Assembly (NCBI RefSeq): GCF_053078305.1 | Contig: NZ_CP166879.1 | Reading direction: 5' to 3' (one strand) | Length of the DNA stretch: 64,000 nt | Part shown: in pieces, positions 6,632 to 43,020 of the stretch | How the letters are laid out: each line of letters begins with the position of its first letter | Numbering within the stretch: the first letter of the stretch is position 1 | The notes under the pieces: generated by a model | The model's input: the letters and a program-made list of their open reading frames with translations, nothing else | What the model was told of the DNA's origin: nothing | Databases searched by the model: none | Translations under genes and position numbers: made by a program

Positions 6632-6930
6632 AATGGCAGCCTCTTGGTTGAGTATTAATAACTCACCACCAAGGTTTTCCACGACCATAAGGGTGGTGAG
6701 ACGTACAGGGGTGGAAATACCGGTCAACCAAGAATCCGGCCAGCCTTGCGGCTGCCCTGCACGCCCCACCATAATCTGAATGTGGCTGTGCATTACGCAT
6801 AAAAAAACCGCCTGAGCGCGGTTATGCGCTTGATTGAATTCCGGGTTTCCACGCCCGGCACCCGCTTTATGAGGTGCAGATGAACTATAATTCCACCCGT
6901 TCTGGTTTTCAATAGCTACATTCAACATTT
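6632..6930 (-). promoter_or_regulatory. Structured leader with intrinsic-terminator hairpin upstream of rha; homologous to satellite leader at 35684-36045
   Basis: Hairpin ACCGCgctcagGCGGT plus U7 near 6795-6825; conserved blocks shared with second copy. Confidence 0.45.
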
Positions 6931-7119
6931 TCTCTTACCCTTCATCACCGAAGTGAACTTTGTTGATGCAGTGCCTGGTGCCTCCAGGTGACGTTAACCA
7001 GTTAACAATTAACGCCGGAATACAGAAGTATGCCCGTTACGCCCCGTAAAAGACCACTTTACGGTTTTAACTGTTCCGCGTGCGCTTAGCCGCATTCACC
7101 GCATCACAAAATTCACTTT

Positions 7120-7178
7120 AAAAAGGGTGGCAGAGCAGTCACGGAGTAGAACTGATGCCACCAAAGACTACACATGGG
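7120..7178 (-). ncRNA. dicF: DicF-like small RNA
   Basis: Minus strand reads ...ggtggcatcagttctactccgtgactgctctgccaccctttttaaagtgaattttgtgatg, matching recalled DicF core and downstream flank. Confidence 0.6.
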
Positions 7179-13167: not shown

Positions 13168-13386
13168 ATGGTCACATTATTTAGAAAAAAATATCCGCGA
13201 AAGAGTAGAACAACAGAATTTCTGTTTCTCATTCTGTTTATCGTGTTGATGATACCGATATCCCCGTTAATCCTAGTCTGGATAATCGGAAAAATAATTG
13301 AGCCAGTTATTGAATTGTATAACGACGTGGTATGGGCGTCATTCAACACACTGCACAATAAAATTAATCCGTATAAGGAAAGCTGA
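13168..13386 (+). CDS. Small membrane protein
   Basis: 72 aa with hydrophobic core. Confidence 0.3.
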   Translation: MVTLFRKKYPRKSRTTEFLFLILFIVLMIPISPLILVWIIGKIIEPVIELYNDVVWASFNTLHNKINPYKES

Positions 13387-13387
13387 T

Positions 13388-13753
13388 ATGGCACTGACGA
13401 AAAAACAACGCGCAGAACTGCGCATGAAGTTCGGTGGTCGCTGTGCTTATTGCGGCTGCGAACTTGGCGAAAAGTGGCATGCAGACCATGTAAAACCGGT
13501 CATTCGTTTTGATGGAAATATGCTTCACCAGGAACGTGACGATATATCCAACATGGTTCCGGCATGCCACCCATGCAATCTGCACAAGCATTGCAGTAGT
13601 CTGGAAGATTATCGGCGAATTATCAGTGATGGTCGTCGTGAATTCCTTGCGTCCGGGAAAGGCAAAGCGCTGGTTCGTATGGGATTGGTTGAAATGAAAT
13701 CTGACCCGGTTGTGTTCTGGTTTGAAAAATATCAAGAAGGGGCTACGGCATGA
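13388..13753 (+). CDS. HNH endonuclease
   Basis: CAYCG...HADHVKP...CHPCNLHK; AAGGAAAG RBS. Confidence 0.7.
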
Positions 13754-14094
13754 CGACTTTTACCAGAGAGCAGTTAATAGCTCACGCAGAGGAGACTATT
13801 GAAGCACAGAGACTGTGCATACCGGGCACAATCGACCATGACATCATCCGCACATATAAGATGGATATTGCTGTTCTGGAAATCGCACTGGTATCGCTGG
13901 CAGCAGAGCCAGCCGGTAAATTGCATGAATACAAACCAGTGGGATATCAGCGTCTGGTCGATGAGTTAACCATGCTGGTAAAGCAGTTAACCTGGCAACT
14001 GAGGAAAGCGAAGCCAGACTGCAAATTACCGGATAAGGCGATGAGTTATCTGGAGCGGAACGGACTGATAAGCGTGGAGGATATTTTACGATGA
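13750..14094 (+). CDS. Hypothetical phage protein
   Basis: 114 aa, translationally coupled. Confidence 0.45.
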
Positions 14095-14385
14095 CCTGGC
14101 CTGAAGCATTAACAACGGTAGGAATTGCGATGGCGGTGGCGCTGGTGGTGTATTCGATTTGCCGCTGGGGATAAAAACGGTTTGCGGGAAAAGGAGAGTT
14201 AAGTAGAATTGCAGCGGGTGCTTGAGGCTATCTGTCTCAGGCATGAACACCAAAAGGCAGATAGAGAAAAGCCCCAGTTAACATTACGCGTCCGGCAAGA
14301 CGCTTAACATTAATCTGAGGCTCAATCTGTGAACGGCAAATCTAGGTTAGCCTCTTACGCGCCGAAAGGCAAGGAGAAGCAGGCT

Positions 14386-14541
14386 ATGAAGCAGCAAAAG
14401 GCGATGTTAGTCGCCCTGATCGTCATCTGTATTACCGTCATTGTGACGGCACTGGTAACGAGGAAAGACCTCTGCGAGGTACGAATCCGAACCGGCCAGA
14501 CGGAGGTCGCTGTCTTCACAGCTTACGAACCTGAGGAGTAA
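14386..14541 (+). CDS. hok: Hok/Gef-family type I toxin
   Basis: 51 aa MKQQKAMLVALIVICITVIVTALVTRKDLCEVRIRTGQTEVAVFTAYEPEE; upstream in-frame extension resembles mok. Confidence 0.7.
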   Translation: MKQQKAMLVALIVICITVIVTALVTRKDLCEVRIRTGQTEVAVFTAYEPEE

Positions 14542-14643
14542 GAGACCAGGCGGGGGAGAAATCCCTCGCCACCTCTGATGTGCCAGGCATCCTCAACGCA
14601 CCCGCACTTAACATGCTTCGGCGGGTTTTGTTGTATTAGAATA

Positions 14644-14961
14644 TCAGGATATTACCTGGATCCCGTTTTTCTCGACAACTGAAAGAAGCCGAAGAGCTGC
14701 ACCTCCCGGGCGTTTCACTCCTCGTTCCCAGTCTGATATCAGGTTTTTACTGACGTTGAGGTATCTGGCAAAAACAGGTTGAGACAGATGCTCTCGTTCT
14801 CGCAGTGCACGGATCCTTTCTGGAGACATTACCGGCGCAGGCTGAAGACAAGTTTCATCGAATTCGCGCATAGTTTGTTTTGTGATTGCACCGATATCAT
14901 GGAGTGACTCCATCATTTCATGTACAGATGCAAGTGCATCACTGCGGTAATTTTTACTCAT
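14644..14961 (-). CDS. HTH (XRE-type) antitoxin of type II TA pair
   Basis: 105 aa, C-terminal HTH; overlaps upstream toxin gene by 8 nt. Confidence 0.65.
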   Translation of the reverse strand: MSKNYRSDALASVHEMMESLHDIGAITKQTMREFDETCLQPAPVMSPERIRALREREHLSQPVFARYLNVSKNLISDWERGVKRPGGAALRLLSVVEKNGIQVIS

Positions 14962-15325
14962 TGGGTACCTCCGTGAACTGGCCTTGTTGAATCAATTGTG
15001 CCAGCTGTTCATCAGTAAGATTGAGGACATGGGGAGCGGCTTTTCGAAAAGCATTTTCCTCTATAGCAGTGATATTCTCTCGTTCATTCTTTGCGTATGC
15101 GTAGATGAAAAAGGCTTTTTCTGCAACGCGGTAAAAAATTATTGTCCGGTAACCGCCTGATTTTCCGCCACCACTTCGGGCTAATCTTTGTTTAATGACA
15201 CCACTACCCAAATTTGCGGATATGATCCCCTTATCGGCCAGCTCCACGATTTTGCGCAGCGATTTATCGGAAATCCGATGTTTTCGGGCGAAACGTTCAA
15301 ACCAGGCGTTTTTGAAAATTCGCAT
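14954..15325 (-). CDS. RelE/ParE-superfamily toxin (HigB-like)
   Basis: 123 aa; ...GGYRTIIFYR...FIYAYAKNEREN...; toxin-first gene order. Confidence 0.65.
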   Translation of the reverse strand: MRIFKNAWFERFARKHRISDKSLRKIVELADKGIISANLGSGVIKQRLARSGGGKSGGYRTIIFYRVAEKAFFIYAYAKNERENITAIEENAFRKAAPHVLNLTDEQLAQLIQQGQFTEVPNE

Positions 15326-15503
15326 ACCTGCCTCTGCATTTTATATAACACATAGTGTTACACCATGTGGACTATGGAGGCAATCTTTATTTGAGAATGC
15401 TTGCTGATTTATCGGTGTTCAAAAAACAGACGTAATTCAGATTGTATAAACGGCAGACAGAAAAAGTCATTGTTCTTGCGCATAAAATCCTCAGATTTAC
15501 TGA

Positions 15504-28227: not shown

Positions 28228-28454
28228 GCGACCTTATTATCCATGCGCGGTATTGTCGCCGTATTCCTGCATTAACAGAGACCGCAGCCCGACAGGGAGA
28301 CTCCTCTGCGCGAGTGTGCGGGGATAATCAAAAACGATACACACCGGGGTTTACCGCGTTAACGGAGCGCGGCGTTGTCCCCTCATGGTCGCTGGTCCGG
28401 TGCGATGGTGGAAGAAACTGGATTTTGTTGCAACTGATAATCATTATCATTTTC

Positions 28455-28530
28455 TCGGGTCCTTTCCGGCATATGGACCCGTTACGGGGCGGCGACCTCG
28501 CGGATTTTCACTATTTATGAAAATTTTCCG
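28455..28530 (+). other. Lambdoid cos site (cosN GGGCGGCGACCT at 28487-28498 plus flanks)
   Basis: ACGGGGCGGCGACCTCGCGG..TTTATGAAAATTTTCC matches lambda cos; CCGGACATG repeats downstream. Confidence 0.65.
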
Positions 28531-28681
28531 GGATCCATGTCCGGTTTCTCTGCAAGTTAACCATATGAAAAATATAAAAACATGCTTTCCATGAACCGGA
28601 CATGCGCAAAAAATAGACACTAAAACCGGACATGACCGGTTTTGTTGTGATTGTGAGGTGAGAGTTTTTGCGAGGTGAGGA

Positions 28682-35683: not shown

Positions 35684-36045
35684 TGAGAAATCATACCACA
35701 CACCCGCAAGGGCGGGACTCGCACAACCTGAATAAATACATCTGGCGTTTTCTGGCCCGAAAAAACCAGTTGATCGCCAGTGTCGAAAATAGCTATGATT
35801 CCCGCGCACCTCATAAAACGGGTGCCGGGATTGGCGTCCTGGGCAAAACTGAAGCGCATAACACGCGCCCCGCGTGTTTTTTTGTGCCGCATAGTCACAC
35901 CTTATCAATGGTGGGCTGTACGGGGGCGGAGCAATCCGCGCCGGTTTCTTCAGTGTCCGGTTACGCCAACCCTGTACAGTCCGCCACCAGCGAAATTGGC
36001 GTTTCCGGTGGCGGTTATCTTAACCACACTGAGGAGGCTGCCAAC
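35684..36045 (+). promoter_or_regulatory. Structured leader with terminator hairpin; homologue of rha leader at 6632-6930
   Basis: Conserved blocks plus hairpin ACACGCGccccGCGTGT followed by U7. Confidence 0.45.
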
Positions 36046-42042: not shown

Positions 42043-42072
42043 CATAAGGCCGGAGAAATCCGGCTTTTTTTA

Positions 42073-42150
42073 CGGGTCCTTTCCGGCATATGGACCCGTT
42101 ACGGGGCGGCGACCTCGCGGTTTTTCGCTATTTATGAGCTTTTTTCGGGT
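42073..42150 (+). other. Satellite cos site (cosN 42104-42115)
   Basis: About 48 bp identical to prophage cos (GGGTCCTTTCCGGCATATGGACCCGTTACGGGGCGGCGACCTCGCGG), then divergent. Confidence 0.65.
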
Positions 42151-42791: not shown

Positions 42792-42959
42792 CAGACGCGC
42801 AATTATTGAACAAAAGTAAGGCCCGACATGAAATCACCCAAAAATGCCTTTTTCATGCGTTTGTATGTCTGACCTTTTACGGTTTCGATATTATAAAAAA
42901 CAAATAGTTACGCTCGAGAGGTACCGACACGCATTTTTCAGGAAAATTTTCATAAACAG

Positions 42960-43020
42960 ATAAAAACCGCGAGGTCGCCGCCCCGTAACGGGCCATAATT
43001 CCAGGAAGGACCCGACGACA
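42960..43020 (-). other. Second, inverted cos-like site (cosN complement 42972-42983)
   Basis: Minus strand reads CCCGTTACGGGGCGGCGACCTCGCGG...TTTATGAAAATTTTCC. Confidence 0.5.

Follow-up and report, generated by a model that had tools for sequence, protein, structure and literature searches.

A hok/mok/sok-type toxin-antitoxin module of the HokD/HokW clade, very probably intact, in the early region of a lambdoid prophage

The described systems closest to the locus considered here are hok/mok/sok (parB) of plasmid R1 and hokW/mokW/sokW of the Shiga toxin (Stx) 2 phage 933W and the Sakai prophage Sp5 (AF125520). The locus lies at 14216-14636 on the plus strand of a 64,000-nt stretch of contig NZ_CP166879.1 (RefSeq assembly GCF_053078305.1). 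This whole stretch is called the window, and all positions are counted from its first letter. An original prediction made from the letters alone had marked the locus as a hok/mok-type type I toxin locus. Judged by its sequence, it very likely belongs to the HokD/HokW clade of hok/mok/sok type I toxin-antitoxin (TA) modules, is intact and forms part of the accessory cargo of a lambdoid prophage, in whose early (replication-to-nin) region it lies. A locus of this kind is already known, and database records include nearly identical copies.

The hokW-sokW pair of Sp5 has been established by experiment as a type I TA system in which HokW arrests growth (PMC8621323; Takada et al., 2021). HokW is neutralized by the cis-encoded sokW RNA, which has 71 nt of complementarity, and this neutralization depends in part on RNase III and Hfq; the RNA was seen by Northern blot, and mutation of the sokW promoter (-10 region) freed HokW toxicity (PMC8621323). 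Mitomycin C treatment led to loss of sokW RNA and to RecA-dependent accumulation of HokW in the inner membrane, and deletion of hokW-sokW delayed growth arrest and halved phage release (PMC8621323). In the R1 mechanism the mRNA is activated by a 3' exonuclease, the RNA duplex is cleaved by RNase III and the two RNAs differ in stability; three states of the hok mRNA (full-length, truncated and leader) have been described (PMC9841398). According to a recent survey, hok genes are about fourfold enriched in prophages.

Among phage records the window locus is 91% identical in DNA sequence to the region of 933W annotated as mokW, hokW and 'SokW antisense RNA'. The two loci have in common a closely similar Hok (88% identity), a 70-codon mok in frame with hok, carriage by a lambdoid prophage, the tac (translational activator), ucb, dcb and fbi (fold-back inhibitory) boxes, a Sok hairpin that is longer by 18 nt and the position of the Sok promoter. 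They differ in the mok start codon (GTG in the window, ATG in 933W), in the allele formed by the Sok 5' tail and its target (AACGGCAAAUCU in the window, CUGAACACAUGU in hokW), in the sequence past fbi, which is unrelated, and in the flanking genes. The R1 locus has the same order of elements, namely tac, 5' stem, ucb, Sok hairpin, mok Shine-Dalgarno (SD) sequence, mok start, dcb, hok SD, hok, 3' hairpin and fbi, and R1 and the window share the conserved boxes GCTTGAGGC, GCCTCTTAC and CAAGGAGAAG. In contrast, R1 Hok is only 43% identical to that of the window, its tac and fbi boxes read GGCGC/GCGCC, its Sok hairpin is 18 nt shorter and it is carried by a plasmid rather than by a prophage. Moreover, mok and hok of R1 are read in different frames. 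The name HokD comes from K-12 hokD (relF), which we take to be part of the Qin prophage relBE operon and to lack a mok/sok leader of its own; the window locus is therefore closer to hokW in architecture.

The best match to the locus itself was found in a prophage of E. coli strain FHI_NMBU_10 (97.6% DNA identity), where replication and ea22-like genes lie upstream and DUF968, RusA and DUF1133 genes lie downstream. That copy has the identical Hok and agrees with the window in target allele, in the weakened terminator (see below), in the upstream gene and in an adjoining RelE/helix-turn-helix (HTH) pair of the HigB-2/HigA-2 type, but its mok begins with ATG. A 601-nt query covering the locus gave matches at megablast stringency in 4942 of the 5426 complete E. 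coli genomes, and the matches listed label the gene hokD. At blastn sensitivity related sequence, including mokC/hokC, was present in 5425 of the 5426, and with a 24-kb query the best complete E. coli genome was ~96% identical over 83%.

The hok gene occupies 14386-14541 (+), starts with ATG and encodes a 51-aa protein, MKQQKAMLVALIVICITVIVTALVTRKDLCEVRIRTGQTEVAVFTAYEPEE, which aligns over positions 1-42 of 42 of the Pfam profile PF01848 (HOK_GEF) with an E value of 5.8e-24 and 83.9 bits (gathering score 22) and also matches PHROG 251, 'MokW-like host killing' (E 7e-33). Besides its relationships to HokW and R1 Hok given above, the protein is 100% identical to WP_000813267.1 (named 'HokD') and 86% identical to HokC. 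Alignment with HokD, HokW, HokC and R1 Hok showed the architecture of the family, that is, a length of ~50 aa, an N-terminal hydrophobic helix and a C-terminal TRK-LCE...G..EVA.F..YE pattern, the invariant residues including C15, T25, R26, K27, L29, C30, E31, R35, G37, E40, V41, A42, F44, Y47 and E48. A SD sequence, AGGAG (14372-14376), lies 9 nt upstream of the hok ATG within the invariant box CAAGGAGAAG. According to a preprint, HokD is among the previously characterized toxic controls, and 42 of the 45 homologs tested were toxic (bioRxiv 10.1101/2025.08.07.668861).

Translation of hok would be coupled to that of mok, a 70-codon frame that runs from a GTG at 14329 through the hok stop at 14541 (+). 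It is homologous to the annotated mokW of 933W and is preceded at a distance of 8 nt by the SD sequence GAGG (14317-14320), which is part of a GAGGC that was invariant in all aligned loci. Both the 51-aa Hok-family toxin and the in-frame, mok-like upstream extension of the original prediction are therefore present.

The hok coding sequence also contains a candidate site for TadA A-to-I editing. The Tyr47 codon, TAC, is followed by G (UACG, 14524-14527), a sequence context in which editing would convert Tyr to Cys. The hexamer TACGAA (UACGAA in the mRNA, 14524-14529) was invariant across the aligned loci, and TadA editing to Cys at the corresponding codon of hokC/D/E is described in the introduction of the same preprint (bioRxiv 10.1101/2025.08.07.668861). 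Since the local hairpin at the candidate site folded no better than shuffled sequences, editing stays a lead from the literature only. If it occurs, Hok would gain a second cysteine at its C-terminal end.

To delineate the mRNA the window was aligned with ten reference loci (chromosomal and plasmid copies of the hokD-like type, hokW of 933W, a hokC locus and an R1-type IncFII hok) and with 100 unique loci from IMG/VR, which were retrieved by the conserved motif GCCTCTTAC-N11-13-CAAGGAGAAG. A putative hok promoter, read from the sequence, consists of a -35-like TTTGCG (14181-14186), a 17-nt spacer and a -10 TAGAAT (14204-14209). Most of the aligned loci, hokC among them, have a TAnAAT hexamer equally far from the conserved GGGTGCTTGAGG, and the R1-type locus has TATGAT in its place. 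As TAGAAT lies seven bases before GGGTGCTTGAGG, the mRNA should start at ~14216, which is also where the Rfam model match begins and where the conserved GGGUGCUUGAGG lies. The full-length mRNA would thus be ~420 nt (14216-14636, +), with both ends predicted. The tac element, GGGUGCUUGAGG (14216-14227), was nearly invariant in the 100 loci. It is followed by a stem that pairs 14228-14237 with 14255-14264, by the ucb or anti-SD box AAGCCCCAG (14268-14277), which can pair alternatively with the mok SD region or with tac, and by a long hairpin (14275-14317), the stem and the long hairpin being placed by the alignment. The dcb box GCCUC (14350-14354) pairs with the mok SD GAGGC (14317-14321). Beyond hok lie a G+C-rich hairpin of the 3' untranslated region, GGCGGGGGAGAAAUCCCUCGCC (14549-14570), seen in both full-length and 3'-truncated folds, and fbi, CCUCAACGCACCC (14591-14603), which is the reverse complement of tac except for one bulged base. 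Comparison with relatives places a degenerate terminator at 14600-14636, CCCGC...GCGGG followed by UUUUGUUG; in most relatives the terminator is ACCCGCUUCGGCGGGUUUU (-13 to -15 kcal/mol).

A scan against Rfam, the check named in the original prediction, gave a match to RF01794 ('sok antitoxin (CssrC)') of 109.7 bits (gathering score 59, E 4.8e-24) at 14216-14391 on the plus strand, over model positions 1-157. Note that the matched strand is that of hok and that the match stops at the hok AUG. The model thus stands for the 5' leader of hok, and it is this leader, not the Sok RNA, that the match confirms. The locus had been predicted to extend over 14180-14600. The placement stands, whereas the end falls short, as fbi and the terminator region to ~14636 reach or exceed 14600.

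The predicted RNA structures correspond to the three states described for the R1 hok mRNA (PMC9841398). The minimum-energy fold of 14216-14636 has an energy of -161.8 kcal/mol (z -4.6) and its first 12 nt are paired with fbi. This pairing consists of 12 bp plus one bulge, and fbi is the sole such site in the 64-kb window. The bulged base is the position that varies (C/T) among loci, and tac and fbi were paired in 95-100% of the 100 loci. In the same full-length fold GCCCCAG (14271-14277) pairs with CUGAGGC (14315-14321) and buries the mok SD. When the last 60 nt were removed, the 5' end refolded locally and tac was found in a local hairpin, an arrangement similar to the 5' metastable hairpin of R1. 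The leader 14216-14275 folded alone gave a tac/ucb stem (14268-14274 with tac) around an inner hairpin (-24.1 kcal/mol, z -3.7), and this is the consensus structure of RF01794.

Compensatory changes among the 100 loci were found in three of these helices. In the 5' stem, the pair 14230-14262 is AU in 77 loci, GC in 19 and UA in 1, and the pair 14236-14256 is CG in 94 and UA in 4. In the long (Sok) hairpin compensatory pairs were 14277-14315, 14279-14312 and 14280-14311, and in the 3' hairpin they were 14553-14566, 14555-14564 and 14556-14563. At tac/fbi the difference between the R1-type locus (GGCGC/GCGCC) and the clade (GGGUGC/GCACCC) is likewise compensatory.

A Sok-like antisense RNA had been expected opposite the 5' leader, and a minus-strand gene was indeed recognizable there by its homology to 933W sokW, by promoter-like hexamers and by a terminator hairpin. 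The putative promoter (14344-14372, -) has a -35 TTGCCT (14372-14367), a 17-nt spacer and a -10 TAACCT (14349-14344), all in conserved columns, and its position matches the start of 933W sokW. The predicted start is the G at 14337. With ends transferred from 933W sokW, the Sok RNA would be ~71 nt (14267-14337, -) and would consist of a 5' tail (14337-14324), a hairpin (14323-14269) and a U-rich tail. Folding gave -32.2 kcal/mol (z -5.0), a stability that none of 200 shuffled sequences reached, and the predicted structure has ~14 unpaired nt at the 5' end followed by an interrupted hairpin of 20-odd bp and the U-rich tail. Members of the HokD/HokW clade have an 18-nt insertion at the tip of the Sok hairpin relative to hokC and R1; relative to the RF01794 model, the insertion in this second hairpin is 16-18 nt in the window.

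A hypervariable patch (14322-14345), made up of the 5' tail of Sok and of the target of this tail, the mok start and first codons, has the highest column entropy within the mRNA in the 100 loci. The loci are otherwise ~95% identical, and the patch occurs in 16 discrete alleles, of which that of the window, AACGGCAAATCT, is the second commonest. The target hairpin of the window (14312-14358) folds with -14.4 kcal/mol (z -2.9). One tentative explanation, which we hold to be possible rather than probable, is that this ~15-nt patch is a specificity code kept diverse by selection, such that hok/sok copies of co-resident prophages avoid cross-silencing. If so, each prophage would keep a private addiction or induction switch, that of the window being the second commonest allele plus a private GUG. 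Simple lack of constraint could also account for the diversity. In a small comparison of IMG/VR contigs from the same genome, alleles were shared in 1 of 12 pairs as against 0.11 expected at random (P = 0.61); it has no power and favors neither explanation.

A scan of species-representative genomes for the window target allele, with either ATG or GTG, gave a single match, which has ATG and lies on a contig binned as a Lachnospiraceae metagenome-assembled genome (MAG). This locus (L131, SFGN01000096.1, 6800-7082) has an E. coli-type hok leader with the allele of the window and breaks inside the hok SD into unrelated sequence. The contig is probably mis-binned or chimeric, or the locus disrupted, and the match is uninformative on recurrence of the GTG variant.

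By analogy we take over the mechanism of R1 and hokW-sokW for this locus with high confidence. The weak hok promoter would give the ~420-nt mRNA, in which the 5' tac pairs with fbi near the 3' end, and in this closed form the mok ribosome-binding site would be paired with the upstream ucb. Removal of the 3' end would let the 5' end refold and the leader take the tac/ucb structure, and slow 3' trimming, as in R1 and hokW-sokW, would in this way activate the stable hok mRNA. The minus-strand promoter inside the mok start would produce the ~71-nt Sok RNA, with a single-stranded 5' tail that is the complement of the mok start region. Sok, abundant though short-lived, would pair with the activated mRNA and RNase III would destroy the duplex. 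Once Sok synthesis stops, ribosomes would translate mok and then, by coupling, hok. Loss of the element, shut-off of host transcription by an infecting phage or induction of the prophage would be the triggers. The 51-aa Hok would then enter the inner membrane and collapse the membrane potential, resulting in cell death or lysis. The role of such a module here is most likely, by the same analogy, to help killing or lysis upon prophage induction, to stabilize the prophage, or both.

Several observations weigh against taking the locus as an intact and active module. The NCBIfam Hok models scored below their curated cut-offs, the subfamily model NF007279 at 48.6 against 73 bits and the HokA model NF007290 at 39.5 against 89, and PGAP presumably names the identical protein HokD via another rule. 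Both the hok and the Sok promoter appear from their sequences to be weak by consensus, and a generic, strict-consensus promoter and terminator scan of 13900-15500 picked up neither the hok nor the Sok signals, so that these signals are assigned by homology and conservation. From 19 alleles of the target hairpin RNAalifold retrieved no common stem other than the invariant outer GAGGC/GCCUC, with no consistent covariation in the inner part, and therefore a conserved inner target structure is not claimed. As tac and fbi are invariant within the clade, covariation there neither supports nor contradicts their pairing. The introduction of the preprint also reports some chromosomal hok loci without post-segregational killing (bioRxiv 10.1101/2025.08.07.668861). 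The two remaining points are features of the window copy itself. The mok start was ATG in 119 of 119 IMG/VR copies and in 10 of 10 reference loci, even in copies with the target allele of the window, and thus the change to GTG is private to the window (0 of ~129 relatives) and could lower toxin expression. In addition, the 5' arm of the terminator has AT in place of CC in the window and in FHI_NMBU_10 (CATGC; ACAUGC...), leaving a weak alternative hairpin of -9.2 kcal/mol (z -0.2), which is no more stable than shuffled sequences.

These last two features are what one would look for in an attenuated or decaying copy, in which the GTG start and the eroded terminator (CATGC for CCCGC) reduce or uncouple expression and the locus is on its way to a silent relic like several K-12 hok loci. 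Disrupted relatives do exist, these being L131 (broken in the hok SD) and p22AR0118B (beside an IS421 transposase). Decay is nevertheless unlikely. GUG is a valid start codon, and a saturation screen of R1 gave loss-of-function hits at just two positions of the mok start, 2 and 3; for the hok start those authors did not expect AUG-to-GUG to inactivate, as a valid start is kept (PMC9841398). Moreover, pairing within the target hairpin survives the A-to-G change, which turns A-U into G-U. The weakened terminator is not taken as disabling because 933W hokW works without this terminator. The identical Hok protein occurs elsewhere, and all other elements of the locus are intact. Given the R1 start-codon results (PMC9841398), we consider that the locus with its GTG probably still works, perhaps at a lower output.

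Of the disrupted relatives, p22AR0118B (L009) is a hokD-like plasmid locus whose homology is lost ~415 nt in, just upstream of fbi, beside the IS421 transposase. Some K-12 hok loci are disrupted by insertion sequences downstream of hok.

Next to hok, the original prediction had also noted a type II TA pair on the other strand, and this is what the minus strand of 14644-15325 appears from its sequence to encode. The toxin gene (14954-15325, 123 aa, RelE type, PF06296, E 5.8e-47) is the upstream gene and overlaps by 8 nt the antitoxin gene (14644-14961, 105 aa, HTH_3, E 1e-7). The closest solved relatives, by sequence matches to the PDB, are HigB-2 (E 3e-4) and HigA-2 (E 7e-8), and we designate the pair HigB-2/HigA-2-like. 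PADLOC matched no defense-system model to either Hok or the RelE-type toxin, and its HTH matches were generic. The two modules converge, with ~10 nt from the hok U-tract to the antitoxin stop (14644), and the weakened terminator is limited to the lineage that has the pair (CATGC in the window and in locus L002, an intermediate CCTGC in locus L109). An arrangement of this sort might be expected of a single two-toxin unit, for example one in which hok read-through is antisense to the higA-like gene, or the reverse. Such a unit is very improbable, however, since the pair adjoins hok in only 3 of ~130 related loci, each module is complete alone and hok has been reported as not enriched near defense systems (bioRxiv 10.1101/2025.08.07.668861). 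Most E. coli matches stop at ~14638, as independent cassettes would. A composite unit was therefore rejected on the rarity of the adjacency, and the two are treated as independent, incidentally adjacent cassettes.

Least credible of all is that antisense regulation is absent, Hok being a small membrane protein (a holin-like lysis helper) made from a phage early transcript and the Sok features being merely conserved leader: the RF01794 match is on the sense strand only, the Sok hexamers are poor (4/6 and 3/6 matches to consensus) and the locus is co-directional with the neighboring plus-strand open reading frames (ORFs) up to 14094, but the minus-strand hairpin and U-tract stand well apart from shuffles and show compensatory changes, and at the 91%-identical hokW locus sokW was detected by Northern blot and mutation of its promoter frees toxicity (PMC8621323).

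Other features of the window were recorded in passing. Upstream of hok, a hydrophobic 27-aa ORF (14091-14174, +) has an ATG that overlaps the stop (ATGA) of the upstream 114-aa gene and ends 6 nt before the hok -35. No family was matched by this ORF, which may encode another small membrane peptide. A 151-aa HNH endonuclease gene (13298-13753, +; PHROG 2118, E 4e-57) with weak PtuB-like PADLOC matches is located two genes upstream of hok. Two isrK plus C4 antisense RNA modules were found in opposite orientation, at 6689-7176 (-) and 35806-35991 (+), with ~68% identity over 273 nt, and DicF adjoins the first of them. Their presence suggests that the window includes two different regulatory regions of prophage origin, or else two prophages. 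At 19758-21049 (+) lie tRNA-Met(CAT), tRNA-Arg(TCG) and tRNA-Arg(TCT), followed by the small RNA STnc100 (140.9 bits) and, downstream, a 660-aa ORF that in relatives is a SASA-family esterase. We take this layout to be a Stx-phage-like prophage arrangement. The size of stxA is ~315-319 aa, and between the tRNAs and the 660-aa ORF there was no ORF of that size. Finally, an ~80-nt element occurs three times (28450-28532, 42067-42149 and 42941-43015) with 88-90% identity, one copy being inverted.

The module is a textbook type I TA module, and the significance of the locus lies mainly in its correct annotation. Standard annotation covers only the hok coding sequence and misses mok, the Sok RNA gene, fbi and the terminator to ~14636. 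Note also that the sense-strand match to RF01794 'sok' should not be copied into a record as the antitoxin strand. For the bacterium, a lysogen with this prophage would probably carry an extra killing or lysis function that is switched on at induction.

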